A stretch of 64,000 nucleotides of DNA from an uncultured Candidatus Saccharibacteria bacterium (GTDB taxonomy: Bacteria > Patescibacteriota > Minisyncoccia > Phycocordibacterales > UBA9973), in NCBI GenBank assembly GCA_964520225.1, contig CAZFNV010000004.1, positions 14,520 through 78,519 on the forward strand, given 5' to 3'. The notes under the pieces were generated by a model that was given only the letters and a program-made list of their open reading frames with translations, was not told where the DNA came from and ran no database searches. Made by a program: the position numbers and the translations under genes. How positions within the stretch are numbered: position 1 is the stretch's first letter; the number at the start of each line of letters is the position of its first letter. Positions 21,026 to 55,425 of the stretch are shown in pieces.

Positions 21026-21159
21026 ATACCCATGTAAAGTGGAAAAGTATGATTTTTGTCAGCAAAAAACAATTAAAACACCTCGTCAATGCGAGCGCAA
21101 AATAGACACGATATTTAAAGCGCCAAATCGAATAAATTTTTGATTATATACCCAAAATG

Positions 21160-21233
21160 TCCACCCTCTTGGACTCGAACCAAGGACCCCAGAGGTATAA
21201 GCTCTGTGCTCTAGCCAGCTGAGCTAAGGGTGG
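21160..21233 (-). tRNA. tRNA-Ile with anticodon UAU (reads AUA); CCA not encoded
   Basis: Reverse complement CCACCCTTAGCTCAGCTGGCTAGAGCACAGAGCTTATACCTCTGGGGTCCTTGGTTCGAGTCCAAGAGGGTGGA. Anticodon stem CAGAG/CTCTG, loop CTTATAC, discriminator A. Confidence 0.7.
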
Positions 21234-23224: not shown

Positions 23225-23255
23225 AAGCGCCTTTTGAGCGCTTTTGTATGTCGAG

Positions 23256-23647
23256 TGGAGATGGGGGAAATCGAATCCCCGTGCAGAAGGTTCTTACTAA
23301 AAAGTCTACATGCTTAGCGCGCTTCAAAGTTTAAATTAAAAAATTAAGAAACGAGCCAAATATTTTTTAATCGATCCCAAAGTTTTCGTGAAATACTTGG
23401 GCGAGTATTTCCTTATCCCGATAATATTACACTTCTACTCATATATCGGAAGTCTATGAGAGAAATGCCGGACTTAGGCTTACGCGAAAGCCGGAGCGAA
23501 AGCAAAATCATTCATACCGAAGTATGGGGATTCTGTTTTGCTGTTAGTCAATTTTGCAATTAACGTTTTGAACGAAGTTTAGCGAGTTTACGTCCATGCT
23601 CGACATGCATTTTAGGAAATAGCCGACTGTCTATGCCTGGCATCCCC
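23256..23647 (-). ncRNA. ssrA: tmRNA (ssrA), standard one-piece
   Basis: 5' GGGGATG pairs with 3' CATCTCC to give a G3:U70 Ala identity pair. T-arm is GGGGATTCGATTTCCCC. An internal frame ...GCA AAA ... GAT TTT GCT TTC GCT CCG GCT TTC GCG TAA gives a tag ending -FAFAPAFA. The gene lies immediately downstream of smpB. Confidence 0.7.
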
Positions 23648-33514: not shown

Positions 33515-34786
33515 TTAATACTCGCGCATTGAGACTTGAGCGTCGATCTTTTTGATGAGGTCTAGAACCACAGAAACAACGATAAGAATGGAGGTACCAC
33601 CAAGCGCAAGCGAGGTGATGCCTGTTAAGTGTTGCATTATTATAGGAAGCACAGCAATAAACCCCAAGAAAACCGCACCTAGTAAGGTGATTCGGCTTAA
33701 AACTTTAGAAATATATTCTGCGGTTGAAACACCCGGGCGAATGCCTGGAATGAATGCACCGTTCTTCTGCAAGTTGGTAGATAGGGCATCTGGATCGAAA
33801 GTTACCGCGGTGTAGAAATAAGTAAACAAAAACACGAGAATGAAATAAAGTATCGCATAGAGAAGGCTCGTCTGCGAGAAAGACATTAGCACTTCAGAAA
33901 CTTTTACGGCTACCGGATGACTAAAACGCGCCAAGAATGTTCCGATCATCTGAGGAAAAAGCAGTATAGAGAGCGCAAAGATTATAGGGATAACTCCAGC
34001 CTGATTAACGCGTAGCGGTAGATAGGTCGTTCCGCCGCCATATACTTTCATACCTCGCACGCGCTTAGCATAAGTCACTGGTATTGGACGCTCTGCCTCA
34101 GTTACAGTAACAATGCCTGCGATTATGAGCACTGAGGCAATCGCAAACATTGCAAACAGAGGAATTTGTGAAGGATCGAAAGTGAATATGAGCTCGTTGA
34201 CATGAGTAGGTAGCACTGACACGATACCTGCGAATATAACTATGGAGACACCGTTCCCAATGCCGAATTCTGAAATGAGCTCGCCTAGCCACATTATAAG
34301 TATCGCTCCAGCTACCACTATGAGCACATTGAGGAACCTGTCGAAACCACCAAGGTTTGTAAGAATTCCCTGATTTTCTAGTATTGCAAGCAAGGCGAAA
34401 CCCTGAATGAAAGCTAGTGGCACAGTAAGGAGTCGAGAATATTGAGTGAATCGCTTCCTGCCCGCCTCACCTTCCTCGTGGTATATCTTCTTGAGCGCTG
34501 GCACCATTATAGTGAGAAGCTGCATTATGATCGAGCTAGTGATGTAGGGACCAACACCGAGCATGATGATAGATAGGTTGGCCAAACCACCACCAGAGAA
34601 AATGTTAAGAATTCCAAAAAATTGATTGTTGGATAAAAAGCGCTCGAGCGCTACGGTGTCAATTCCAGGAATCGGAATCGCAGAAAGTAAACGAAAAACC
34701 ACAAGTGCAAAAAGCACAAACAATACTTTCCTGCGAAGCATTGCGTCAGTATAAATCAACTTTATTTTTGTCCAAAAATTTTGCAT
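33515..34786 (-). CDS. secY: Preprotein translocase subunit SecY
   Basis: 10-TM SecY topology and plug region, at the end of the spc operon. Confidence 0.95.
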   Translation of the reverse strand: MQNFWTKIKLIYTDAMLRRKVLFVLFALVVFRLLSAIPIPGIDTVALERFLSNNQFFGILNIFSGGGLANLSIIMLGVGPYITSSIIMQLLTIMVPALKKIYHEEGEAGRKRFTQYSRLLTVPLAFIQGFALLAILENQGILTNLGGFDRFLNVLIVVAGAILIMWLGELISEFGIGNGVSIVIFAGIVSVLPTHVNELIFTFDPSQIPLFAMFAIASVLIIAGIVTVTEAERPIPVTYAKRVRGMKVYGGGTTYLPLRVNQAGVIPIIFALSILLFPQMIGTFLARFSHPVAVKVSEVLMSFSQTSLLYAILYFILVFLFTYFYTAVTFDPDALSTNLQKNGAFIPGIRPGVSTAEYISKVLSRITLLGAVFLGFIAVLPIIMQHLTGITSLALGGTSILIVVSVVLDLIKKIDAQVSMREY

Positions 34787-34787
34787 T

Positions 34788-35090
34788 TTATGATCTAACC
34801 ACTATCTTCCCGCCTTTGATTCCAAGCCTTTTACGTAGTGCAGAAAAAGTTTCTTTACCCTCTACTTTTTCTTTTGCAACCCTAACTGTCTTGCGAACAG
34901 AATTAAAACGATATCCGCGCGCTTTCGGCAACTTCTTAATGATATCACGAAGCTCAGGCCTGCGCTTGTTACCCGCGCGTGCGGTCTGCCCTTTGCCTCC
35001 TCGGCCAGAAGTCTTGGCGTGCTTGCCGCCGCGACCGACTATGCGGTCCTTCTTATTCTTATGTTGTCTTTTTAAATTATGTGTCTGCAT
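34788..35090 (-). CDS. rplO: 50S ribosomal protein L15 (short form)
   Basis: KNKKDRIVGRGGKHAKTSGRGGKGQ... Gly/Arg-rich L15 N-terminus. It overlaps the rpsE end, so there is no L30 gene. Confidence 0.8.
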   Translation of the reverse strand: MQTHNLKRQHKNKKDRIVGRGGKHAKTSGRGGKGQTARAGNKRRPELRDIIKKLPKARGYRFNSVRKTVRVAKEKVEGKETFSALRKRLGIKGGKIVVRS

Positions 35091-35101
35091 GAGAGTGGTA
35101 T

Positions 35102-35662
35102 TTATTTTTTAATCTCTGTAGCTGGAGCCGGCTCTGCTTTTTCAGTAGTAGCGCTCTCAGAACCCTTATATTTCTCCCCAATGATAGATAGGGCCTGAAT
35201 AGTAGCTTTAGCGTTGTTTAATTTATTCTTGCTGTTGGAGAGTATTTTAGCAGTTATGTCTCGGACTCCAGCAAGTTTAACTATATCGCGCACCACAGAA
35301 CCAGCTACGAGACCTCGCCCTTTGTTTGGAAGAAGAGCAACCTTACAACTAGAGAATTTAGCGGAAAGTTCATAAGGGATAGAAAGGGTTTTAGTTAGCT
35401 TAAGCTTGACCATGTTCTTCCTCGCGCTTCGTAGAGCCTTCGCAATAGCAAGCGCAGTATCCCCCGCCTTACCTAGACCAAGCCCCACCGCACCCTTCCT
35501 GTCACCGGCAACTAGCGCCACTGAGAAAGAAAACCTGCGACCGCCAGCCACCACACGAGTAACCCTGCGGATATCGATAATTTTCTGATCAAACTCTGGC
35601 TTAGGCCTGCTGAAAGATCCCCCTCGTCTGCTGTTATTCTTTTTTTCTTTTCCTTGTTCCAT
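35102..35662 (-). CDS. rpsE: 30S ribosomal protein S5 (with C-terminal extension)
   Basis: RRVTRVVAGGRRFSFSVALVAGDRKGAVGLGLGKA... S5 dsRBD plus C-terminal domain. Confidence 0.9.
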   Translation of the reverse strand: MEQGKEKKNNSRRGGSFSRPKPEFDQKIIDIRRVTRVVAGGRRFSFSVALVAGDRKGAVGLGLGKAGDTALAIAKALRSARKNMVKLKLTKTLSIPYELSAKFSSCKVALLPNKGRGLVAGSVVRDIVKLAGVRDITAKILSNSKNKLNNAKATIQALSIIGEKYKGSESATTEKAEPAPATEIKK

Positions 35663-35676
35663 ATTTTTTGTTTACT

Positions 35677-36018
35677 CTAAAATTTAAGCCCGCCAGCACG
35701 CGCCTCATCCGCGACCAGTCTTACGCGACCAGTATACTTGAAACCGTTGCGATCAAACACCACCGTGGTAATACCTGCTTTCTTGCAAGCCTCAGCCACT
35801 AGTTTACCTACTTCCTTGGCGCGAGTAGTCTTTGTACCTTTTGCGGCCTTAATGTCGCTCACTGACACAATTGTCTTGCCTGTCGCATCATCGATAACCT
35901 GTGCATAAATAAACTTGTTCGAGCGGAACACCGACAAACGAGGACGCGCTTCTGTGCCAGTCACCCTTGTTCTGATTTTCTTCTTTAGTCGTATTCTTTT
36001 GTCGGTTTTATTTTTCAT
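35677..36018 (-). CDS. rplR: 50S ribosomal protein L18
   Basis: L18 family: RPRLSVFRSNKFIYAQVIDD... Confidence 0.85.
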   Translation of the reverse strand: MKNKTDKRIRLKKKIRTRVTGTEARPRLSVFRSNKFIYAQVIDDATGKTIVSVSDIKAAKGTKTTRAKEVGKLVAEACKKAGITTVVFDRNGFKYTGRVRLVADEARAGGLKF

Positions 36019-36061
36019 ATTACTTTATAACCCTGCCTGCGGCAGGCAGGTTTTTACTTAT

Positions 36062-36595
36062 TTAGACTGTCTTCTTACCCTGCTTGCGTCTAATAACTTC
36101 GTTATCATAACGCATACCCTTACCTTTATATGGCTCTGGCTTCTTGAGAGCGCGAATCATTGCAGCGAAACTCCCCACTAATTCTTTATCTATGCCAGTT
36201 ATGGTTATGTTATTTTTCTCAGCAGTCGCGGTAATACCTTCTGGTATCGGCACGACAACCGGATGAGAAAACCCTAGGGCAAAATGAAACTCTTTACCTT
36301 TGACTTCAGACTTGAATCCAACTCCTTCTAGGATAAGTTTCTTCTGGAAAGGCTTCTCTGAACCTAGAATCATGTTCTTGATATGCGCTGCGTATGTTCC
36401 CCAGAGAGCTTTAGAAAATTTATCGTTGCGCTTGGTACCCAAAGTGATAACCGCATCGCCAACTGATATAGTTATGTCGTCTCGGAAAGATCTGGTGAGT
36501 GTTCCTTTAGGGCCAACTACAGTAATAGTGTTGCCATCCTTGGTAACTCTGACTCCGCTCGGTATTTTTATTTCTTGTTTACCTATTCTTGACAT
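36062..36595 (-). CDS. rplF: 50S ribosomal protein L6
   Basis: MSRIGKQEIKIPSGV... duplicated L6 domains. Confidence 0.9.
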   Translation of the reverse strand: MSRIGKQEIKIPSGVRVTKDGNTITVVGPKGTLTRSFRDDITISVGDAVITLGTKRNDKFSKALWGTYAAHIKNMILGSEKPFQKKLILEGVGFKSEVKGKEFHFALGFSHPVVVPIPEGITATAEKNNITITGIDKELVGSFAAMIRALKKPEPYKGKGMRYDNEVIRRKQGKKTV

Positions 36596-36604
36596 ATTAT
36601 TTAT

Positions 36605-36991
36605 TTACCAAATTCTAAATAACGCTTCGCCTCCAACCTGCTCTTTACGAGCCTCCTTGCCTGTCAGAATACCTTTTGGAGTTGAAAGCACTAAGAGCCC
36701 TGTACCATTACGAACTGAATGAATATCCTTTACCCCGAAATACACTCGGCGTGATTGTTTAGAAATTCGCTCCACTTCTCTGATCCTAGGCGCTTTATCT
36801 TTGTACACAAGCTCTACTTCGAGCACTGGATGATCGCGCCTAACTTTCTTGGCAAAACCACTGATATATCCCTCCTTTTTCAAGCATTCTAAAATAGCAT
36901 TTTTCAACTTTGAATAAGGCAAAACCACAGAGTCCTTGCCTGCAAGTGAGCCGTTCTTTATTGCTATTATCATGTTAGAAATTGGATCCAT
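36605..36991 (-). CDS. rpsH: 30S ribosomal protein S8
   Basis: MDPISNMIIAIKNG... S8 family. Confidence 0.9.
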   Translation of the reverse strand: MDPISNMIIAIKNGSLAGKDSVVLPYSKLKNAILECLKKEGYISGFAKKVRRDHPVLEVELVYKDKAPRIREVERISKQSRRVYFGVKDIHSVRNGTGLLVLSTPKGILTGKEARKEQVGGEALFRIW

Positions 36992-37007
36992 AGAATTTTA
37001 TAGGAAA

Positions 37008-37193
37008 TTACCAGCTGGACTTTCGCACACCTGGTAGCATGCCTTCGTTCGCAAGTTCTCGGAAACATATTCGGCATATACCGAAATCACGCATAAAAGC
37101 ATTACCTCGACCGCATTTAAAACAACGATTCTTGGATCGTGTAGAAAATTTTGGTTTTTTAAGCGCGCGCGCTTTTACAGATGTCTTTGCCAT
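37008..37193 (-). CDS. rpsZ: 30S ribosomal protein S14, type Z (zinc-binding)
   Basis: 61 aa with [10 protein letters not shown]...CRICFRE CxxC pairs. Confidence 0.9.
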
Positions 37194-37333
37194 ACTATTA
37201 AAAAAGTCTATTCGTATAGGAGATATCGTGTATTTTTACTCAAAACCCCGATAGAACCTTGAGTAGAAACACAGATCAACCCACAACCTTAGACTCCTGT
37301 TATCTTAGCAGGTTTTGAGCCGAGAGTCAAATC

Positions 37334-37912
37334 CTATTTCTTTTTACCCCTCCCCTCCTTCGCATCTTCTTTCTTGAAAGGAACACCAAGGAGTTCGAAG
37401 AATTCCAGACCCTCCTTTCTGTCTTTTGCAGAAGATACTAGGGTAATAGACATACCGAAAACATCACGAATATCTTCGTCAGCAGTTTCAGGGAATATTG
37501 TGTGTTCTTTGATTCCAATGGAGAGATTGCCAATGTTGTCTACCCCGCTCTTGTTGATTCCTCGAAAGTCCTTCGTGCGAGGAATAGCCACATTTATCAG
37601 CTTATCCAAAAATGCGTACATTCTCTTGCCTCGTAGAGTAGCCACTACGCCGATAGGATCACCTTGGCGAATTTTGAAGGATGACACAGACTGCTTCGCT
37701 CCACGAAAAGCTGTTTTTTGACCAGTTATTTTTGCAAGACGCTCTGCCACAAGATCATTCTTCTTGTTGTCTTTCTTCATTAAGGTCCCGGTACCAACGT
37801 TCAACACAACCTTCTTCATCTTTGGCGCAGCCATCACATTCTTGTAGCCAAAAGAATCCTTAAGCTTCGCGAACGCTTCCTCTTCTCTTTGTTTTACTGT
37901 TTTATGTGACAT
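37334..37912 (-). CDS. rplE: 50S ribosomal protein L5
   Basis: L5 family (...GQKTAFRGAKQSVSSFKIRQGDPIGV...). Confidence 0.9.
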   Translation of the reverse strand: MSHKTVKQREEEAFAKLKDSFGYKNVMAAPKMKKVVLNVGTGTLMKKDNKKNDLVAERLAKITGQKTAFRGAKQSVSSFKIRQGDPIGVVATLRGKRMYAFLDKLINVAIPRTKDFRGINKSGVDNIGNLSIGIKEHTIFPETADEDIRDVFGMSITLVSSAKDRKEGLEFFELLGVPFKKEDAKEGRGKKK

Positions 37913-37921
37913 ATTCTATCT

Positions 37922-38137
37922 TTATATTTTCTTAACATTTGAAGCATGAATAGGCATCGCTACATCTACCACCGCACCTTTCTCGCCTGACTTGCGTGGA
38001 CGCCTGTGCTTTTTGCTCATATTCAGCCCTTCGACTATAACTCGATTCTCGCTCGGCATCGCTCGCAAAACCTTGCCCGTTTTGCCACGGTCCTTACCAG
38101 CTATTACTTTTACATTGTCTCCTTTTTTTACGTGCAT
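37922..38137 (-). CDS. rplX: 50S ribosomal protein L24 (short)
   Basis: KOW motif HVKKGDNVKVIAGKDRGKTGKV. Confidence 0.8.
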   Translation of the reverse strand: MHVKKGDNVKVIAGKDRGKTGKVLRAMPSENRVIVEGLNMSKKHRRPRKSGEKGAVVDVAMPIHASNVKKI

Positions 38138-38154
38138 CGTATTTTCTTTATAAA

Positions 38155-38526
38155 TTATATAACTTCAGGCGCAAGTGAGATTATCTTCTGGAAACCTTTC
38201 TCTGCTAATTCGCGAGGTATCGGACCGAATATTCTACCCGCCTTAGGATCCTGCTTGCCTTTCTCCAGTATCACCACAGCGTTGTCGTCAAACCGAATAT
38301 ATGAACCATCTTTACGTCGATATGCGTCTCGAGTGCGCACCACCACTGCCTGATGTACGTCTTTCTTCTTGACTGCCTTGCGTGGACTTGCGACCTTCAC
38401 AGATATTACAACCAAGTCGCCGATCTTCGCGTATCTCTTCTTTGAGGAACCGAGCACCTTGAAAACTGCCCCGAGAGTTCCTCCGGCGTTGTCTGTTATT
38501 TTTACTAAACTTCTTGGTTGAATCAT
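38155..38526 (-). CDS. rplN: 50S ribosomal protein L14
   Basis: MIQPRSLVKITDNAGG... L14 family. Confidence 0.9.
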   Translation of the reverse strand: MIQPRSLVKITDNAGGTLGAVFKVLGSSKKRYAKIGDLVVISVKVASPRKAVKKKDVHQAVVVRTRDAYRRKDGSYIRFDDNAVVILEKGKQDPKAGRIFGPIPRELAEKGFQKIISLAPEVI

Positions 38527-38552
38527 ATGTTTGTGTTACTTGCTTTAATATT

Positions 38553-38795
38553 TTATTCAACGACTTTGAAACGCTTGTCTTTAGAAATAGGTTTGGTCTC
38601 TATTATGGTTACCTTGTCGCCAACTTTATATTTCTTGTTTTCGTCGTGAGCTTTGTATTTTTTATTTACTTTATAGAATTTGCCGTATAGTGGATGCTTG
38701 ATAAAGCGAGACACTGACACAACGACTGTTTTCGCCATCTTGTCGCTCACCACTACTCCTTCTAATGTATTCGTTTTTTTGTTTGTAGTATTCAT
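38553..38795 (-). CDS. rpsQ: 30S ribosomal protein S17
   Basis: [18 protein letters not shown]... OB-fold S17. Confidence 0.85.
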
Positions 38796-38800
38796 AAATA

Positions 38801-39223
38801 TTACTTATGTCGCGCGATAACCTTAGCCTTGATAGGAAGCTTGGTGCCCGCCTTGCGAAGAGCCTCGCGCGCTACTTTGTCTTCTGCGCCGTCAACTTCG
38901 AAAATTATTCTTCCAGGAAAAACATCAAAACAGTATCCTTGTGGGTCTCCCTTACCCTTACCCATGCCCACCTCAGCAGCTTTCGCAGTATAAGGCCTGT
39001 CTGGGAAAATACGAATCCAATATTTACCAGTCTTAGTAAGTGTGCGAGAGATCACTTTGCGCGCAGCTTCTATTTGAGCAGAACGAACTCGAGCCTGAGT
39101 TTCTGACTTAAGACCGAAAGATCCGAAGGCAAGCTTGACTCCACGTGAATCTGGGCGCACCGCCTTAGGGTTTGTGCGCTTGGACTGCCATTTTCTAAAT
39201 TTTACTTTTTTTGGTATCAACAT
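38801..39223 (-). CDS. rplP: 50S ribosomal protein L16
   Basis: [11 protein letters not shown]... L16 family. Confidence 0.9.
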
Positions 39224-39232
39224 AAATATATT

Positions 39233-39931
39233 TTAATCCTTTGGCGTTTCGCTCACTGCCTGTGAACGAGCCACTTTGTCTGCAAATATTTTACCTCGAT
39301 AAATCCAAACCTTGATACCGATAGTGCCGTATGAAAGTGTCGCGCGCTCACGCTTGAAATCTATGTCCGCGCGGAAAGTCTGAAGTGGTATTGAACCACG
39401 CTTGAGCTCTTCGGTGCGGGCGATCTCAGCACCACCTAGGCGTCCAGATAGAACCATGCGCGCACCTTCTACTCCGCGAGCTTGCATCACCTTCTCCATT
39501 AATGTCTTCATAACTCGGCGATATGGCATCCTTTTCTCAAGACCTTCAGCAATCATATACGCCACTATTGCCGCATCTGCTTCGGGATTGCCTACCTCTA
39601 CTATTTCCAGCTTGAAATCTTCTGGCCTTGCGATCCCCAGCTTGTCCATCTTTTTCAAGATATCTTCTTTGAGCTTGGTGGCACCTTCACCGTTGCGACC
39701 TATTACTAGACCAGGCCTGGAAGTTTTCAATATAAAGCGAGTAGCTTTACGAGAGCGCTCTATCTCTACAGAAGAAACATACATGCCACGCAACTTCTTC
39801 TCTAAATACTGGCGGATCAAAACATCACCCCGTAGATATGAAACATATTTTTTAGAATCAGCAAACCACCTAGACTTCCAGTCTCGGAGTATTACTAACC
39901 TATGCGCGTATGGATGAACTGTTTTTGACAT
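39233..39931 (-). CDS. rpsC: 30S ribosomal protein S3
   Basis: KH domain plus S3 C-terminal domain. Confidence 0.9.
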   Translation of the reverse strand: MSKTVHPYAHRLVILRDWKSRWFADSKKYVSYLRGDVLIRQYLEKKLRGMYVSSVEIERSRKATRFILKTSRPGLVIGRNGEGATKLKEDILKKMDKLGIARPEDFKLEIVEVGNPEADAAIVAYMIAEGLEKRMPYRRVMKTLMEKVMQARGVEGARMVLSGRLGGAEIARTEELKRGSIPLQTFRADIDFKRERATLSYGTIGIKVWIYRGKIFADKVARSQAVSETPKD

Positions 39932-39935
39932 AAAA

Positions 39936-40310
39936 TTATTTCTTTATTGTTTTTGCTTTTTTGGTTTTGGTCGGCTTAGCCTTGACTACCCGTTCATCTA
40001 GAACGAGCGCAACATTGCTTGTACGCTTGTTTATTCTATGAGCGCTACCCATAGCTGCAGGCATTATTCGCTTCATCACAATACCTTTATCCACGCGAAG
40101 CTCCTTAACATATAGACTCTCTGCAGAGAGACCGCTATTCTTGGCATTCGCAATCGCAGAAAGCAAAAGCTTTTTTATCGGAGCTGCTGCCCGCTTTGGC
40201 AAAAATGAAAGCGCAGTCACAGCATCTCCTGCGCTCTTCTTCCTGATCAAGCCCGCCACTAGGCGAACCTTTCTTGGAGACTGTCTGTAATTTTTTAAAT
40301 AAGCTTTCAT
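39936..40310 (-). CDS. rplV: 50S ribosomal protein L22
   Basis: MKAYLKNYRQSPRKVRLVAGLIR... L22 family. Confidence 0.85.
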   Translation of the reverse strand: MKAYLKNYRQSPRKVRLVAGLIRKKSAGDAVTALSFLPKRAAAPIKKLLLSAIANAKNSGLSAESLYVKELRVDKGIVMKRIMPAAMGSAHRINKRTSNVALVLDERVVKAKPTKTKKAKTIKK

Positions 40311-40337
40311 TTTTTTATTTATAGTGAGCTTGTCGAA

Positions 40338-40718
40338 CTATTTCTTGGCCGCACCCTTAGCGTCGCTTGCAGTTTCAGTCGCCGCCTTTGCTGCTGCTAT
40401 CTCAGCCTCTTTCTTCTTAGCCTCTAATTCCTTCTGCATCTTACCGCCATGCTTGGTGAATTTCTTGGTTGGTGAGAACTCGCCCAGTCTGTGACCCACC
40501 ATGTCTTCTGTAACCAACACATCTATGTGAGTCTTGCCGTTGTAAACGCCAAAAGTAAAACCGAGCATCTCAGGTGAGATAACACTAGCGCGCTTCCAGG
40601 TCTTGATTGTTGGTGTGGAAAGCGGATTTTTGCCTGCTATCTTCTTTAGCAGTTTTTCGTCTACGAATATTCCTTTTTTGATTGACCTTGTCATATTAAA
40701 ATTACCGTAAGAAAACAA
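40338..40718 (-). CDS. rpsS: 30S ribosomal protein S19 with Ala/Lys-rich C-terminal extension
   Basis: [19 protein letters not shown]... S19. The likely true start is the ATG at about 40694. The C-terminal tail is [25 protein letters not shown]. Confidence 0.9.
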
Positions 40719-40877
40719 AAGAGCTCCTACTAAGAGCCTCGAAACATACTAGCAGATATTGGGTAAAAGTCAAATAAGAAGTTGTGGGAGGCGCGAGGTA
40801 AACTCGCTCGCGCCTACCGGATGATGGGAATGATGGGATCGCCCGAAAGTGGGCAACCACGGAGGAGAAGGAGTGAG

Positions 40878-40961
40878 CTACTTGCCCGCCCCCTGCTGGG
40901 TAGCGCCCGTCTTCTGGCTCTTCGCGACCAGCTTCAACTCCCGCCTGCGCTTCCTGTCCAT
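40878..40961 (-). CDS. 27-aa highly basic peptide ORF (MDRKRRRELKLVAKSQKTGATQQGAGK)
   Basis: ATG lies 5 nt after GGAGGTGA, and that SD overlaps the stop of the preceding small ORF. It is not in the ORF track because it is under 60 aa. Speculative. Confidence 0.3.
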   Translation of the reverse strand: MDRKRRRELKLVAKSQKTGATQQGAGK

Positions 40962-40971
40962 GCTCACCTCC

Positions 40972-41169
40972 TCAGTGAATGTGCTCATCCACGCGAACGA
41001 GCACGAAGGCGTCGTCGTCGAGCGCATCCTTGTGCTCGACGGCCACGAGCTTGTCGTCGTGACCCAACGAGTCCAGGATACGATCCCGGATGGCAGCGCG
41101 CTTGTAACGCGCATTGCAACGGACCTCTTCTCGGTCGCACTTACGATCACTCTTGTGAGAGTGTGCCAT
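40972..41169 (-). CDS. 65-aa charged Cys/His-containing small protein of unknown function
   Basis: ATG lies 8 nt after AGGTGGGGGA. Protein is MAHSHKSDRKCDREEVRCNARYKRAAIRDRILDSLGHDDKLVAVEHKDALDDDAFVLVRVDEHIH. Codon usage is GC-rich. Confidence 0.4.
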   Translation of the reverse strand: MAHSHKSDRKCDREEVRCNARYKRAAIRDRILDSLGHDDKLVAVEHKDALDDDAFVLVRVDEHIH

Positions 41170-41294
41170 GTTGACGTCCCCCACCTGTTGGGCTAACTTT
41201 AAACACGAGACCTACTCGTGAGTAAACTTAGCGCACAAAGAACAGGTATGCGTATTAGGGTAAAACTTTTTGAAAAGTGTGTCAAGTAAAATTG

Positions 41295-41325
41295 TGTAAA
41301 AACTAAAATTACACAGGGTTCCCCT
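41295..41325 (-). terminator. Intrinsic terminator-like hairpin immediately after rplB
   Basis: Perfect 14-bp stem aaaattacacaggg/ccctgtgtaatttt with a 3-nt loop and a flanking U-run. Confidence 0.5.
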
Positions 41326-41365
41326 GTGTAATTTTTTACTTGTAGCAAGCTTGTCGAGCTATTTT

Positions 41366-42205
41366 TTATTTATTCTTTCCTGTCTTTCTTCGGCTAACAA
41401 TAAATATGTTTGAGTACTTTTTAGGAGTTCGAGTTTTTCTTCCACCAGTAACCTTACCCCACATAGTCTTCGGGCGCTTGGTGCCTCGGCCTTGCCTACC
41501 TTCACCTCCACCATATGGGTGGTCCACTGGGTTCATGGCTGTTCCGCGCACTGTAGGGCGAATACCCTTCCAGCGACTTCGTCCTGCCTTACCAAAGTTT
41601 TCTAGATGATGTTCTTCATTTGAAACTGAACCCACAGAAGCCCAAGAATTTTCATTGATCTTACGTACCTCAGTAGAAGGCATCTTGATGTTGGTGTAGC
41701 CCTCAGCGTTCGCTACCACCTGCGCGAATATTCCGGCACTGCGAGCCACCTTTGCTCCACCTTGTGGCTTGATTTCAATATTGTAAACAAATGTTCCTAC
41801 TGGTATTTCTTTGAGTGGAAGCCTGTTCCCGGCCTTAAGCTCTGCTTTTTCTGAGACGATAAAAGTGTCTCCTGGCTTTACTGATTGCGGTAATATCACA
41901 TACCTCTTCTCGCCGTCCTTATAAACTGCAAGACCGATGAATGCGGAGCGATTCGGATCATACTCCACTGACTTCACAGTAGCTTCGATATTTTTCTTGT
42001 CATATAGAAAGTCCACATCACGATAAAGACGCTTGTGCCCTCCCCCTTTGTGACGCATAGTAATACGTCCTTGGCTGTTGCGGCCTACGGCTCGCTTCCA
42101 ACCCTTGACTAAAGATTTGGTCGGCGCAGTTTTAGTCAGAACATCACGATAGTTGATGTTGGACATCTGCCTTCTCGATTTAGTTGTAGGTCGATATGTT
42201 TTCAT
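41366..42205 (-). CDS. rplB: 50S ribosomal protein L2
   Basis: L2 N- and C-terminal domains (...GGGHKRLYR..., ...HPYGGGEGR...). Confidence 0.95.
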   Translation of the reverse strand: MKTYRPTTKSRRQMSNINYRDVLTKTAPTKSLVKGWKRAVGRNSQGRITMRHKGGGHKRLYRDVDFLYDKKNIEATVKSVEYDPNRSAFIGLAVYKDGEKRYVILPQSVKPGDTFIVSEKAELKAGNRLPLKEIPVGTFVYNIEIKPQGGAKVARSAGIFAQVVANAEGYTNIKMPSTEVRKINENSWASVGSVSNEEHHLENFGKAGRSRWKGIRPTVRGTAMNPVDHPYGGGEGRQGRGTKRPKTMWGKVTGGRKTRTPKKYSNIFIVSRRKTGKNK

Positions 42206-42207
42206 AT

Positions 42208-42480
42208 TTATTTTGCAACTTCTATCTTATCTCCTGTCTTTAAATAGACTACGGCTTTCCTGCCCCCGCCTCGTACTCCAGGCTTACCGCGCAAGAACAC
42301 TTTCTTCGAGGGCACCCCGAGCACATTCACGCGCACAGGTTTTACTTTGTAGAGCTTGAATACTTCTTTCTTAATCTCTGTCTTGTTCGCATTTGTGGAA
42401 ACATCGAAAGTATAAGCATTCATGCCTTCTAACATGGAAGACTTCTCGGTAACTCTAGGATTTTTGATCATTGTTGTCAT
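42208..42480 (-). CDS. rplW: 50S ribosomal protein L23
   Basis: 90-aa L23 family protein between rplD and rplB. Confidence 0.85.
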   Translation of the reverse strand: MTTMIKNPRVTEKSSMLEGMNAYTFDVSTNANKTEIKKEVFKLYKVKPVRVNVLGVPSKKVFLRGKPGVRGGGRKAVVYLKTGDKIEVAK

Positions 42481-42491
42481 GGCAGTAAAGA

Positions 42492-43154
42492 TTATGCGCG
42501 AGATTCTAAGAATTTTACACTTTCGACCGGGTTCTCAATAAGTAAATATTTGTAATTCAAGGCATCCATCGGATTTAGATTTTTCAAAAATGCTATCTCG
42601 AGAGCCGAAATATTGCGAAAACTCTTCTCCGTCTTAGGCTCACGACCGGAAAGTGCAACCAATATTTTAGGCTTGGAAACTTTCTTTGCTGGAATTTTTA
42701 GATCAAGCGCATCCTTTATATTCTCTACTACTTTCACCGCGTCTTTTGTCTTGATAGAAGAAGGAGCTAGTGTATCTACGAAAATTATTTCGCCGTCTTT
42801 TAACTTACGAGATAGAACTGAGAACAAAGCCTGCGCACGCATAGATTTAGAAATTTTCCTCTTATAGTTCTTCTCGGCAAGAGGGCCGTGGGTTACGCCT
42901 CCACCCACCCAAATAGGTGATCGTGTTGAGCCGTGTCTGGCACGACCAGTACCCTTCTGTTTCCAAGGCTTACGCCCCCCGCCACGAACTTCTCCACGAT
43001 CTTTAGTATCAGCAGTACCAGCGCGTTTGTTGCTACGCATGCTCTCTACAACCTGGTGCACCAAGTCAGCACGCCACTTAGCGCCAAAAACTTTTTCCGG
43101 AAGTTCTACTGTTCCTGCCTCCTTGCCTTTTTGGTTGTAAATTTTTGCTTGCAT
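42492..43154 (-). CDS. rplD: 50S ribosomal protein L4
   Basis: L4 family (...RGGGRKPWKQKGTGRARHGS...). Confidence 0.9.
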   Translation of the reverse strand: MQAKIYNQKGKEAGTVELPEKVFGAKWRADLVHQVVESMRSNKRAGTADTKDRGEVRGGGRKPWKQKGTGRARHGSTRSPIWVGGGVTHGPLAEKNYKRKISKSMRAQALFSVLSRKLKDGEIIFVDTLAPSSIKTKDAVKVVENIKDALDLKIPAKKVSKPKILVALSGREPKTEKSFRNISALEIAFLKNLNPMDALNYKYLLIENPVESVKFLESRA

Positions 43155-43768
43155 TATCTTGAAATTATTTCCACTAAACTTCCGCGACGGCCAGCCAGCG
43201 CTCCTTTAATAAGTAAAAGATTATTTTCTTTATCTACCAGCACTACCTTCAGGTTCTTCTGGGTAATTCTGTCACCTCCCATACGTCCCGCCATGCGCAT
43301 GCCCTTCGGCACATGAGTGCGGAGCCCTCCACCAATAGAACCCGGCTCACGCTCAGAATGCTTCTGGCCGTGAGTACGTGGACCACCAGCGAAACCATGA
43401 CGCTTGACCACACCCTGAAAACCCTTACCTTTAGATACACTGGTGACTTGTAGTTTGTCTCCCGGAGCAAATACGGACACATCTATCACATCCCCTTCTT
43501 TGTTTTCGTTCTTATCGCCATCTTTGAGTCGAAATTCTTTTATGGTTTGGAAAATTCCACCCTTTACCGCGCCACGCACAGCTTTACTTACATTCTTCTC
43601 TTTCCCCACACCGAAACCAACCTGCACTGACTCATAACCATCTTTTTCTTTCGAAAAGACGCGCGTAACAGTCACTGGTCCGGCAGAAACAATAGTCACA
43701 GGAACAACTTCACCTTCTGGTGAAAAATATTCTGTCATCTCTTCTTTTTTACCTAGAATAAATTTCAT
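43154..43768 (-). CDS. rplC: 50S ribosomal protein L3
   Basis: L3 family (...FQGVVKRHGFAGGPRTHGQ...). Confidence 0.9.
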   Translation of the reverse strand: MKFILGKKEEMTEYFSPEGEVVPVTIVSAGPVTVTRVFSKEKDGYESVQVGFGVGKEKNVSKAVRGAVKGGIFQTIKEFRLKDGDKNENKEGDVIDVSVFAPGDKLQVTSVSKGKGFQGVVKRHGFAGGPRTHGQKHSEREPGSIGGGLRTHVPKGMRMAGRMGGDRITQKNLKVVLVDKENNLLLIKGALAGRRGSLVEIISR

Positions 43769-43773
43769 AGAAT

Positions 43774-44160
43774 TTAGAGCATTTTTACGTCGATATCTAC
43801 ACCTGAAGGCAAAGATAAATTGGTCAAAGACTCAACGGTCTTTGCATTTGGATTAACTATGTCTATTAGGCGCTTGTGCACTCGCACCTCGAACTGCTCA
43901 CGCGCATTCTTGTAGATGAATGGTGAGCGGTTCACGGTATATTTCTTTATTTCAGTAGGCAGTGGCATAGGACCGACTATCTTAGCATCGTGCCTAGTCG
44001 CCGTATCCATTATTTGTTTGACAGACGCATCGAGTATCTTGCTCTCGTAAGCACGAACTCGAATACGAAGTACAACTCGGTCATCTCCTTTCTTTGAGAC
44101 TTTCGAATCTTTCACAGTCTTCCCAGACGTTTTCTTTACTTTTGTTTCTGTTGTTGTCAT
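43774..44160 (-). CDS. rpsJ: 30S ribosomal protein S10 with ~25-aa basic N-terminal extension
   Basis: ...[23 protein letters not shown]... S10 core. Confidence 0.9.
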
Positions 44161-44200
44161 TGTACTTTTGTTTTACCTAACCTTTCCCTGCCTAATATTT

Positions 44201-45391
44201 CTAGCCTAGAATTTTGGTTACAACTCCCGCGCCAACTGTCTTACCTCCTTCACGAATAGCAAACTTCTGTGATTCTTCGAGAGCCACTGGAGTTACAAGC
44301 TTAACTGTAATCTTAACTGTATCTCCCGGCATCACCATCTCCTTACCCTCTTCTAGGGTCACATCACCAGTCACATCAGTTGTTCTGATATAGAACTGTG
44401 GTTTGTAACCTTTGAAGAATGGAGTGTGACGACCACCTTCCTCTTTCTTCAAAACATAGATTTCTGCGGTAAAGTTGTCGTGTGGAGTAGTGGTACCTGG
44501 CTTACAGATAACTTGTCCACGGGTAATGTCTTCTTTCTTAAGACCTCGGAGGAGTATTCCAGCGTTGTCGCCAGCCATACCTTCCTGCAGGTTTTTGTTG
44601 AACATTTCGATACCAGTAACAGTAGTTTTCTGAGTAGCTTTAATACCAACTATTTCTACGTCTTCACCTACTTTCACCACACCACGCTCGATCTTACCAG
44701 TAACCACAGTACCTCGCCCTTCGATAGAGAATATGTCTTCGACTGGCATAAGGAATGGCTTAGCAGTGTCACGAACAGGGATAGGAATGTATGTATCGAG
44801 AGCATTTACAAGCTCAAGAACTTTCTTCGCCCATTCATCGTCAGCAGACTTAGCTTCAAGGGCTTTTAGTCCAGAACCACGAATGACAGGACAATCCTTG
44901 TCGAAGCCCTGCTTCGCAAGAAGTTCGCGGATCTCTTCTTCCACGAGGTCGATCATGTCTTTATCATCTACCATGTCGCACTTGTTCAAGAATACGATTA
45001 TCTTCGGCACACCAACTTGCTTTGCAAGGAGAACGTGCTCTCGAGTCTGTGGCATCGCACCGTCAGTAGCTGCAACCACGAGGATTGCGCCGTCCATTTG
45101 CGCTGCACCGGTGATCATGTTCTTGATGTAGTCAGCGTGACCAGGGGCGTCGATGTGTGCGTAGTGACGAGCCGCGGTAGAGTACTCGTTGTGAGAAATG
45201 TTAATAGTAATACCACGAGCTTTTTCCTCAGGAGCGTTGTCGATCTGATCAACACCTTTTAGCTTAACAGTTTGCCCCGCCATGTTAAGAACATGAAGGA
45301 TCGCTGCTGTTAGAGTAGTCTTACCATGGTCAACGTGACCGATGGTGCCCACGTTTACGTGTGGCTTGTCTCTCTTAAATTCTTCTGCCAT
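44201..45391 (-). CDS. tuf: Elongation factor Tu
   Basis: [19 protein letters not shown] motifs. Confidence 0.95.
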
Positions 45392-53875: not shown

Positions 53876-54421
53876 TTATTGATTTTTATAAGTCTCTACT
53901 TTTCTATTTAAAATTTCTAATTTTACTTTAGCTTTCTTAAAGATATTCTTCGTTTCTCTACTGGCGTGATAATCATTCAGTGTAACCACTCGCACTATGC
54001 CTGAATTAATAATGCTTTGACCGCATTTGTAACAAGGGGTCATTTTACAATATAGTGTACCACCCAGAACTGACACACCGACACGGGCTGCATTATTGAT
54101 AGCGTTTTGTTCAGCATGAGCTGTACGTACGCAATGCTTAGTAATAGACCCGTCTTCGTGAGTCACATTGTGCATCTCGTGACCAACCTGATCACAATCA
54201 GGTAAGCCCACTGGAGCCCCCACATATCCAGTACAAAGTATTCTTTTGTCTTTCACAATAACTGCGCCAGACCTACCGCGATCACAAGTGCCTCGTGATC
54301 CCACTAATTCAACCATATTTAAAAAGTATTCGTCCCAAGAGGGTCTTTTGTATTTTCCAGTTTTTTGGAAAGATTTTTTCACAACTTTAATATAACCCTT
54401 ACTAATCGAAAAAGCCAACAC
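53876..54421 (-). CDS. dCMP deaminase (ComEB-like)
   Basis: HAEQNAI and PCYKC zinc-binding motifs of cytidine/deoxycytidylate deaminases. Confidence 0.8.
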   Translation of the reverse strand: MLAFSISKGYIKVVKKSFQKTGKYKRPSWDEYFLNMVELVGSRGTCDRGRSGAVIVKDKRILCTGYVGAPVGLPDCDQVGHEMHNVTHEDGSITKHCVRTAHAEQNAINNAARVGVSVLGGTLYCKMTPCYKCGQSIINSGIVRVVTLNDYHASRETKNIFKKAKVKLEILNRKVETYKNQ

Positions 54422-54440
54422 TTTCGTGTTGGCTTTTTCC

Positions 54441-54863
54441 TTATTTAACTTCTACCCCCATCGAGCGAGCCGTACCGGCAACTATGTTGATGAGGCCATC
54501 ATCGTCTTTCGCATTTAAGTCTGCCATCTTTTTCTTACCGATTTCGAGCGCTTGTGCACGAGAGATTTTACCAACCTTAGAAGAATTCGGCTTACCAGAA
54601 CCCTTCTCAATGCCTGCGGCTTTTAGTATCAAATCGCTTGCTGGAGTACTCTTGACTACGAAGTCATAGCTTCTGTCGTCGTATACGCTGATGTATGCAG
54701 AAAGCATCTCCCCCGCCATTTTCTGAGTAGCTGCGTTGAACTTGGTAACGAAATCACCTATGTTAATACCCGCCTGACCGAGCGCAGGCCCAAGAGGTGG
54801 CGCAGGTGTAGCCTTGCCCCCCATGATTCGCACTTTTACTTTTTTAACTACGTTTTTTGCCAT
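54441..54863 (-). CDS. rplK: 50S ribosomal protein L11
   Basis: ...GKATPAPPLGPALGQAGIN... L11 signature. Confidence 0.9.
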   Translation of the reverse strand: MAKNVVKKVKVRIMGGKATPAPPLGPALGQAGINIGDFVTKFNAATQKMAGEMLSAYISVYDDRSYDFVVKSTPASDLILKAAGIEKGSGKPNSSKVGKISRAQALEIGKKKMADLNAKDDDGLINIVAGTARSMGVEVK

Positions 54864-54879
54864 ACTGTTGCAGATTAAC

Positions 54880-55425
54880 TTAAATTTTCTTAACTTGCAA
54901 GAAGTCTAATTCGACTGGTGTCTCGCGTCCGAACATTGAAACCAACACTTTTACCTTGCCTCGCTCTTGGTCTACCGCGTTTACTTTACCTTCTAAATCC
55001 TTAAAGGGACCATCGGTGATAAGCACGCTCTCCCCTAAAACCATATCGATCTGATATTTCGCATTACCACCTTCCATTTTACTGAAGAGGAAGTCCACTT
55101 CTTCTTTGCGCAATGGCACTGGATTCACCCCCGCACCAACGAAGCCGGTCACTCGCGGAGTGTTGCGCACCACATACCAAGAATCATCTGTCACTATCAT
55201 ATCTACCAAAACGTATCCTGGATAAATCTTCTCCTCCACTTCTACTCTTTTACCCCCCTTTATTTTTATTTTCTTCTCCACAGGAACCACTACGTTGAAA
55301 ATCTTGTCGTTCATACCGAGCGAATCTATGCGCTGTTTTAAATTACGCAAGACTACATTCTCATAGCCTGCATAAGTATGAATGGCGTACCAATTTCTAG
55401 CTCCCGCGAGTTCTTGTTTAGACAT
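54880..55425 (-). CDS. nusG: Transcription termination/antitermination factor NusG
   Basis: NGN domain (WYAIHTYAGYENVV) plus C-terminal KOW. Confidence 0.9.
   Translation of the reverse strand: MSKQELAGARNWYAIHTYAGYENVVLRNLKQRIDSLGMNDKIFNVVVPVEKKIKIKGGKRVEVEEKIYPGYVLVDMIVTDDSWYVVRNTPRVTGFVGAGVNPVPLRKEEVDFLFSKMEGGNAKYQIDMVLGESVLITDGPFKDLEGKVNAVDQERGKVKVLVSMFGRETPVELDFLQVKKI

Follow-up and report, generated by a model that had tools for sequence, protein, structure and literature searches.

In the bacterial contig CAZFNV010000004.1, of which we analyzed a stretch of 64,000 nt (positions 14,520 to 78,519; hereafter the window), the ribosomal protein genes rplB (uL2) and rpsS (uS19) are separated by a spacer of 671 nt (40695-41365, minus strand). 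As judged from its own sequence and from that of its relatives, the spacer carries a genuine and chromosomally fixed autonomous unit of two small genes, herein referred to as orf65 and orf27, each preceded by a canonical Shine-Dalgarno (SD) sequence. We favor, with moderate confidence, the view that this unit is a real accessory small-gene cassette, belonging to a clade-wide class with fast turnover; for any specific function our confidence is much lower. The feature is real and unusual, less of a one-off than first thought, and more interesting as a recurrent phenomenon. The initial annotation of this DNA recognized the separation of rplB and rpsS correctly, but its bounds (about 650 bp, 40719-41365) had to be corrected, since the rpsS start identified by homology to relatives is the ATG at 40694 (MTRSIKKG); the upstream start (TTG, 40718) was discarded.

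The core of the spacer (40780-41200) shows a GC content of 60.3%, against an average of 43.6% (standard deviation 3.4%) for 420-nt windows and 43.5% for the window overall. It is the top outlier within the 64 kb, the runner-up stretch reaching 52.4%, and the jump, which had been put at about 60%, is far beyond chance. Likewise, the GC content at third codon positions (GC3) is 0.71-0.96 in the two open reading frames (ORFs) of the cassette and 0.42 in the rplB gene of the window. The claim that native genes mostly lack SD sequences of GGAGG type was also supported: GGAGG was found upstream of none of the 68 gene starts in the window, and any 4-mer SD-like match upstream of 8 of them. The ribosomal genes of the window have A/T-rich leaders upstream or start directly behind TATAAT boxes. 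The description of a self-contained two-ORF unit, with composition and translation signals unlike those of host genes, was supported, and for orf65 comparative evidence of coding was added.

The sister strain used for comparison, L165 (L numbers denote loci of relatives), is a Logan contig from the run SRR31558899, derived from a different sample with a different assembler and retrieved by look-up of the exact uL22 protein. In the direction of transcription, the spacer and its flanks are organized as follows (UTR, untranslated region; pI, isoelectric point).

41366-42205, minus strand: rplB (uL2), ORF of 279 aa, upstream flank, 84-90% identical to uL2 of Nomurabacteria/Paceibacterota.
41332-41362, minus strand: diverged copy of a recurrent 27-31-nt intergenic motif (ATAGYTCGACAAGCT..CTAYAARTAAAAAA); 36-nt direct repeat, 83% identical.
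41305-41335, minus strand: rplB-side intrinsic terminator, a perfect 14-bp hairpin with T-runs on both strands, followed by AGTTTTT.
41257-41285, minus strand: promoter-like site of the cassette as read from the sequence, TTGACA (41280-41285), 17 nt, TACCCT (41257-41262).
41192-41232, minus strand: imperfect 41-nt hairpin of the 5' UTR, found in both minimum-free-energy and centroid predictions, 5 nt before SD1, identical in L165.
41177-41186, minus strand: SD1 (AGGTGGGGGA), 7 nt before the orf65 ATG.
40972-41169, minus strand: orf65, 65 aa plus stop, pI 6.3, net charge -2.
41041-41151, minus strand: divergent patch of orf65, codons 7-43, from the comparison with L165.
40964-40971, minus strand: SD2 (GGAGGTGA), adjoining the orf65 TGA, with the orf27 ATG 2 nt downstream.
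40878-40961, minus strand: orf27, 27 aa plus stop, pI 11.6, net charge +6.5, GC3 0.96.
40819-40877, minus strand: pyrimidine-rich 3' UTR with a small hairpin at 40838-40857.
40786-40818, minus strand: closing GC-rich hairpin (ggcgcgag/ctcgcgcc core) with 12-nt arms, 92% complementary.
40746-40773, minus strand: conserved rpsS promoter found by promoter scan, TTGACT, 16 nt, TG-extended TAGTAT.
40711-40740, minus strand: 5' stem-loop of the rpsS leader with U-run, hairpin at 40722-40738.
40338-40694, minus strand: rpsS (uS19), downstream flank, with an Ala/Lys-rich C-terminal tail of the Parcubacteria type.

All elements of the initial annotation were found in place, with some revision of detail. 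The perfect 14-bp hairpin with its U-run past rplB was observed as described, and homologous hairpins follow rplB in L004 and L010. The TTGACA box was also present, paired with a weak -10 (TACCCT). This promoter looks like a degenerate duplicate of the rpsS promoter, the two having TTTTAYTTGAC...TTTTACCC(T)AATA in common. The 65-aa ORF with its SD was confirmed, except that the ATG is located 7 nt, and not 8 nt, after the box; its GC contents at codon positions 1, 2, and 3 are 0.71, 0.33, and 0.71, and its grand average of hydropathy (GRAVY) is -0.84, without hydrophobic segment. The second SD and the 27-aa ORF also stood, but SD2 follows the orf65 stop instead of overlapping it. SD2 is a perfect 8-nt match to the canonical SD core, in position for translational coupling, with the orf27 ATG located 10 nt past the orf65 stop; the orf27 product is hydrophilic (GRAVY -1.46). 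The closing 8-bp GC hairpin was detected and can be extended to the 12-nt arms, but a canonical U-run is lacking and the structure was not called terminator-like. The 3' end of the cassette (CATTCCCATC, then the GC hairpin, then CCCAC) is similar to that of the L003 cassette.

The sister strain provided the test of both assembly and coding. L165 aligns to window positions 33626-44438 at 96.8% identity (10.8 kb) and carries the cassette at the identical site, with both junctions; in addition, Logan contigs of SRR15237813 encode proteins identical to those of the window. Since L165 has the cassette at the identical site, an assembly chimera is effectively excluded, and the cassette is older than the split of the two strains. 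The check through an independent assembly came out in favor of the junctions, and the insertion is not very recent. The conserved block begins about 10 nt upstream of the cassette -35. Upstream of it, the last rplB codons and the whole terminator module are replaced (L165 3050-3199 against window 41290-41415, 58 differences in 150 nt), and L165 has a different, unrelated hairpin in place of the rplB-side terminator. Within the cassette, 23 nucleotide differences and one in-frame codon insertion lie in orf65 codons 7-43, and the remaining ~483 nt contain 3 differences; orf27 has 1 nonsynonymous difference. Nonsynonymous (dN) and synonymous (dS) divergence between the window and L165 was estimated by the Nei-Gojobori method.

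17 ribosomal genes: dS 0.096, dN 0.005, dN/dS 0.06.
orf65, whole: dS 0.21, dN 0.083, dN/dS 0.39.
orf65 variable patch, orf65 frame: dS 0.425, dN 0.117, dN/dS 0.27.
orf65 variable patch, frame +1: dS 0.195, dN 0.186, dN/dS 0.95.
orf65 variable patch, frame +2: dS 0.164, dN 0.18, dN/dS 1.1.

Fisher's test on the patch gave p = 0.024. These values constitute real, if modest, evidence for translation of orf65 under weak constraint, at a rate of evolution about 16 times that of the ribosomal proteins. With its sharp bounds, the patch looks like either an imported divergent allele or local diversification, which are indistinguishable here. Outside the patch, the cassette has diverged 10-fold less than the third positions of the flanking genes (binomial p 5e-10). 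Along the ribosomal genes, third-position divergence is mosaic, from 1.5% in rpsJ and rplC to 20% in rplN, a pattern indicating frequent recombination.

The genes rplB and rpsS had been taken as normally adjacent, and an insertion between them as unusual. Neither expectation was borne out in the clade of the window: the junction is a promoter-insulated hotspot of 66 to >4000 bp, at which an insertion is expected rather than exceptional. A common rpsS promoter (TTGACw, N16, TAnnAT with TG extension), with a 6-7-bp stem-loop and a U-run downstream, was identified in 37 genomes, and the last ~70 nt upstream of rpsS are conserved clade-wide. In an alignment of 30 sequences, 79% of the cells of the leader stem are paired, against 42-52% in slid controls, and an A-U/G-C exchange occurs at one pair in 5 sequences. 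This stem-loop, for which no match was detected in Rfam, could be an mRNA-stabilizing 5' hairpin or an attenuator. Because rpsS onward has its own conserved promoter and 5' hairpin, the S10 operon of this Nomurabacteria-like lineage is, as read from these signals, split at rplB|rpsS, with rpsS and the downstream genes independently driven. Such an insulated break would let DNA accumulate between the rplB stop and the rpsS promoter. The distance between the two genes ranges from 66 nt to >4 kb in relatives with at least 79% uL2 identity, and is mostly 0-131 nt in lineages with 60% uL2 identity or less. The shortest spacers of the clade (66-133 nt) contain little beyond the rpsS promoter and, in some cases, also the rplB terminator; in larger ones, ordinary genes were seen, among them dgkA (in nine loci), one that is ComEC-like, and apparent proline-synthesis genes. 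If this view holds, the most conserved bacterial gene cluster can host a hypervariable islet once the genes beyond it are insulated by an internal promoter, and this insulation rule predicts the location of accessory DNA in very small genomes. Marker extraction and strain typing can also be affected by the variable content of the spacer, since both of its flanking genes, rplB and rpsS, serve as standard phylogenetic markers.

Some of these larger spacers deserve description on their own. The dgkA-type loci are L013, L023, L025, L028, L029, L031, L049, L108, and L128, a subset of more distant relatives; the ~130-aa membrane protein encoded there is diacylglycerol kinase-like by a conserved motif, and its gene adjoins the rpsS promoter on the upstream side. 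The spacers of L037, L047, and L114 encode SD-led proteins of ~105-130 aa, which by eye look related.

Comparison of the junction in relatives identified, besides the cassette in L165, unrelated mini-units of like design in at least 19 relatives (L001, L003, L006, L008, L009, L014, L081, L082, L085-L091, L094, L098, L119, and L160). Each spacer contains one to four mini transcription units, in which a sigma-70-type promoter and a GC-rich hairpin enclose an ORF whose start codon lies 3-10 nt behind a canonical SD (GGAGGTGA, AAAGGAGGT, or the like). The ORFs are 19-101 codons long and usually Arg/Lys-rich, and most units hold a single ORF; in more distant relatives, SD-led ORFs of 69-132 aa were found in the rplB-rpsS spacer. 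We define this class here as the SD-led small-ORF cassette at the rplB|rpsS break. The cassette of the window likewise lies on the operon strand, after the rplB stop and ahead of the rpsS promoter, and has its own promoter, a GGAGG-type box 3-10 nt before the start, a GC3 above that of the host rplB, and a GC hairpin. Full-text literature searches turned up no account of the hotspot or of the cassette class, which is not proof that there is none.

Marked enrichment of translation signals was observed for the class as a whole. In 32 spacers (20.1 kb), the operon strand had 209 SD cores, the opposite strand 104, and shuffled sequences 83 +/- 10; the corresponding numbers for an SD followed by ATG were 33, 7, and 8.1 +/- 2.8. 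The mean GC3 of cassette ORFs was 0.64 compared with 0.39 for the neighboring rplB, being higher in all 20 loci compared, and the high value persists where the host GC3 is 0.23-0.28. Because the 20 loci share it, the combined SD and high-GC3 signature looks like a property of the cassette class rather than of a one-off transfer. The ORFs of L088 and L098 are 31% identical (E 6e-7), whereas their DNA is not alignable; since they are homologous as proteins without DNA similarity, some of the cassette ORFs are, on this alignment, real proteins. The L098 ORF (101 aa) is an orphan for which no homologue was found.

The middles of the spacers showed no nucleotide similarity between genomes (relatives below about 90% uL2 identity). 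Even within a genome, the two units of L008 are 87% identical over the 62-nt promoter/SD end and 100% identical over the 18-nt tail, but their middles (207 and 218 nt) show no more similarity than do shuffled sequences (z 0.23). L119, L009, and L014 have orthologous units in which the promoter and ACGGnAGGAGGTGA are kept, but the basic peptides of 20-31 aa are not. The turnover of the cassettes is, by these comparisons, modular. If the class holds, it represents a recurrent kind of orphan micro-gene in Patescibacteria that is missed or labelled hypothetical by standard annotation, with canonical SDs and G/C-ending codons in AT-biased genomes without SD use; it then becomes testable whether Parcubacteria that seemingly do without SD-led initiation, and often without a detectable anti-SD motif, use SD pairing for special messages.

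We propose the following explanation. The DNA between the rplB stop and the rpsS promoter could be gained, duplicated, and swapped without harm to ribosomal gene expression. In the window, transcription would start at the putative promoter of the cassette (TTGACA, 17 nt, TACCCT) and yield an mRNA with a 5' hairpin ahead of SD1. The slightly acidic orf65 product would be translated through canonical SD pairing, and the very basic orf27 product by coupling, from the SD directly past the orf65 stop, and the GC hairpin would terminate the unit. As a guess, the acidic (-2) and basic (+6.5) products might act jointly on nucleic acid or the ribosome, in a dispensable accessory function. The closest known concept is that of phage morons, the autonomous promoter-gene-terminator units described for lambdoid phages between genes that are adjacent in related phages. 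The cassette resembles them as an independent unit of small genes between elsewhere-adjacent genes, with deviant composition and with content variable among close relatives. Unlike morons, it is located in a bacterial S10 operon, with no phage genes nearby and no match to PHROG or phage DNA, and the cassette units share an SD signal that host genes lack. By this analogy, the cassette may be described as an accessory moron-like unit in a hypervariable islet.

Several observations weigh against the cassette as proposed. The most serious is that the host makes no use of SD, as seen from the lack of GGAGG at all 68 gene starts. Because rplK is not followed by rplA, the host appears to belong to the uL1-lacking subgroup of Parcubacteria, in which, according to Tsurumaki et al. 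(PMC9297842), the anti-SD motif of 16S rRNA often goes undetected. If the anti-SD is truly absent in the host, the SD boxes are unable to work as proposed; none of the fetched loci of relatives included a 16S rRNA gene. Against this stands that the boxes are enriched, strand-specific, and correctly spaced, and are kept in orthologous units with diverged ORFs. The coding signal of orf65 comes from 20 substitutions between two sequences (p about 0.02-0.05), and orf27 is without comparative support, its 27 codons being within chance length at this GC content. The near-identity of the cassette outside the patch could reflect recent recombination as well as constraint, because rpsJ and rplC contain blocks that are just as quiet. 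The -10 of the cassette promoter is poor, and a consensus scan did not call the promoter; the closing hairpin, without adjacent U-run and not flagged as terminator-like, is a weak terminator. Most units of the relatives have a stronger -10 and a stronger terminator U-run. Finally, no match of family, fold, or context hints at the function of the cassette.

A wider form of the accessory-cassette explanation, which is speculative and has a low probability in our view, regards the spacer as a dedicated exchange site. The conserved promoter/SD and terminator ends, flanked on either side by genes that are among the most conserved in the genome, would serve as recombination handles for swapping orphan micro-genes between strains, and the products, basic peptides sometimes accompanied by an acidic partner, would act on the ribosome or RNA, being encoded by the sole messages in these cells that are translated through SD/anti-SD pairing. 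If true, it would mean a separate and regulatable translation channel, with the housekeeping genes, and possibly part of the ribosomes, working without SD pairing.

Among the competing explanations is the recent arrival of foreign DNA; a foreign origin had been suggested first, and we consider this explanation unlikely. In this case, a GC-rich donor using SD would have contributed the DNA through illegitimate recombination, and the signals would be donor leftovers. The difference in GC content (60% versus 43.5%) and in GC3 (0.71-0.96 versus 0.42 in rplB) and the strong SDs amid a genome without them are as expected from such an event, as are the DNA-uptake genes in Patescibacteria and the ComEC-like genes in some of the relatives' spacers. 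A donor or homologue was, however, not detected. A word-indexed search of 5.8 billion clustered proteins with orf65 and a full HMMER scan of 1.84 billion representatives each returned orf65 itself alone, and no homologue was found in JGI metagenomes or IMG/VR, by blastn against plasmids and phages, or, for the antisense frame of 115 aa, in the search of 5.8 billion proteins. Moreover, the unit is already common to the sister strain of 96.8% identity, and unrelated cassettes with native-type promoters and ends share the signature in 20 of 20 loci, so that many independent transfers into a single site would be needed. Foreign origin was thus not shown. Two IMG/VR matches to orf65 were set aside as chance, lying off-frame within a real gene of 353 aa.

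A toxin-antitoxin (TA)-like addiction pair, in which the acidic orf65 product neutralizes the coupled basic orf27 product and the whole is a selfish module in a permissive site, is rather improbable. Two adjacent, coupled small genes in this order with opposite charges (-2, +6.5) fit the layout of type II systems, and both ORFs evolve fast and are orphan. Like the ribosome-associated pair also named in the initial annotation, the TA reading is a guess. Searches of Pfam, NCBIfam, PHROGs, and PADLOC yielded no toxin, antitoxin, or defence profile, and no recognized superfamily was matched when PDB sequences were included; orf27 is also far below the length of type II toxins. Type I arrays such as ldr or ibs/sib consist of small SD-led ORFs, with tandem multiplication and strain variation. 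The SD-led small ORFs of the relatives, with their own promoter and terminator, in tandem and strain-variable, are reminiscent of such arrays, in particular the tandem units of L008. Unlike type I toxins, both orf27 (GRAVY -1.46) and orf65 (-0.84) are hydrophilic, without hydrophobic segment. No convincing plus-strand promoter was found in the spacer and no antisense RNA was evident; the rplB-side hairpin could terminate transcription on either strand. Most of the related units are monocistronic, a further difference from TA loci.

Equally improbable, in our estimate, is that the spacer is a tolerated dumping ground filled with functionless DNA or proto-genes, in which ORFs are incidental to a GC-rich and purine-rich sequence under no selection. 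Peptide sequences are not conserved even between orthologous units, all ORFs are orphan, those of 20-30 codons are as expected by chance, and the chance of a 65-codon ORF at 60% GC, as estimated from base composition, is roughly 0.1. On the other hand, SD-then-ATG is about 4-fold above shuffles and strand-specific, dN/dS in the patch is low in the orf65 frame (0.27) but not in the two alternative frames (0.95 and 1.1), homology at the protein level links the ORFs of L088 and L098, and a GC-rich island in an AT-biased genome should presumably decay unless maintained or replenished.

Structured RNAs often appear as GC-rich islands in AT-rich genomes, and the initial annotation had named a structured non-coding RNA as a further possibility. 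Either a small RNA or a read-through leader of the rpsS operon, with the ORFs irrelevant, is very unlikely. The whole spacer folds with z -5.5, the closing hairpin is a poor terminator through which read-through into rpsS is possible, and the UTRs are almost invariant between the sister strains. The opposite strand, however, folds equally well (z -5.1), and the ORF region alone gives z -1.7, -2.1, and -0.5. Since the signal vanishes in the ORF region, it comes from the flanking terminator hairpins. A long-range helix between SD2 and the pyrimidine tract after orf27 was not predicted. At gathering thresholds, Rfam identified tRNAs and the tmRNA elsewhere in the window; for the spacer, no credible match was obtained even at E up to 10, the best sub-threshold score being 22 bits against a cut-off of 80 bits. 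Sequence conservation with relatives below about 90% uL2 identity is also absent. An assembly chimera or contamination, for which the abrupt GC change within a metagenome-assembled contig might speak, can be dismissed: an independently sampled and assembled contig has the cassette with both junctions, both flanks within the spacer are homologous to relatives, and the architecture recurs in dozens of independent metagenome-assembled genomes (MAGs) and metagenome contigs.

Other known systems share single traits with the accessory cassette. Integron cassettes and clusters of attC sites lacking an integrase (CALIN arrays) are similar in their small orphan ORFs, conserved ends with unrelated middles, and composition unlike the host. 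In contrast to these, the units carry their own -35 and -10, and the spacer contains no integrase. attC cores (RYYYAAC ... GTTRRRY) were not detected at unit ends in the window, L008, L006, or L160, the sole pair in the window lying inside orf65. The proteins bTHX, bS22, and bL37 are very small basic ribosomal proteins that were found late by structural work; the cassette peptides resemble them as unannotated Arg/Lys-rich peptides of 20-35 aa encoded near translation genes. Unlike these, they differ completely between genomes whose uL2 is 85% identical. No Pfam or NCBIfam profile match to a ribosomal protein was found, and the peptides are unrelated between relatives. In Bacteroidia, rpsU (bS21) is reported to be almost alone in having a strong SD, which serves autoregulation (PMC7797042, PMC13000453). 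The situations are alike in that a few small basic-protein genes near the translation apparatus keep a strong SD in a non-SD genome, and differ in that the cassette ORFs are not bS21 (no Pfam match) and not conserved; the parallel is a lead only.

Searches for families and folds were extended to the remaining frames. The cassette ORFs showed no family match in Pfam, NCBIfam, PHROGs, or PADLOC and no match to PDB sequences, and other long frames of the spacer showed no match in Pfam. A profile of orf65 built from the window and L165, as well as orf27, gave no match below E 0.5 against six-frame translations of 160 loci. A single-sequence AlphaFold2 model of orf65 (predicted local distance difference test score 59.8) has a helix at 20-35 and two strands; its quality is insufficient for searching folds. 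The arginine-rich motif of lambda N bears some likeness to orf27 (MDRKRRRE...), which was dropped as compositional, there being no BLASTP alignment.

The intergenic motif next to the rplB-side terminator is found elsewhere in these operons. A better copy is located at the rpsS/rplV junction of the window (40311-40346), and the second copy of the window has paired changes (TAGC..GCTA versus TAGT..ACTA). At the equivalent of 41332-41362, the motif is not present in L165. The 27-nt motif ATAGTTCGACAAGCTCACTATAAATAA sits directly before starts of ribosomal protein genes at varied junctions (rplW/rplB, rpsS/rplV, and others) in varied genomes. Copies were located in L098 (~2977 and ~5158), L097 (~839), L083 (~5952), and L100 (~3982), and at the rpsS/rplV junctions of L104 and L108. 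Its core, CTCACTATA, may be reminiscent of T7-type promoters.

As to the host, its uL2 is 84-90% identical to that of MAGs labelled Nomurabacteria, Paceibacterota, or Patescibacteria. In the window, the place of rplA/rplJ/rplL behind nusG and rplK is taken by a dCMP deaminase gene and a MazG-like gene (53876-55425), in keeping with the uL1-lacking subgroup. The C-terminal extension of uS19, ~25 aa and Ala/Lys-rich, is encoded within 40338-40430; such an extension is reported to be Parcubacteria-specific (PMC9297842). Between rplE and a Zn-type rpsN (37008-37193), another promoter-like site (TTGACT, 17 nt, TAAGAT), with a leader of ~110 nt, was observed at 37194-37333 and suggests a possible further internal break, of the spc operon. 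The window also encodes a tRNA-Ile with the rare anticodon UAU (21159-21233), with the tmRNA nearby (23253-23647).

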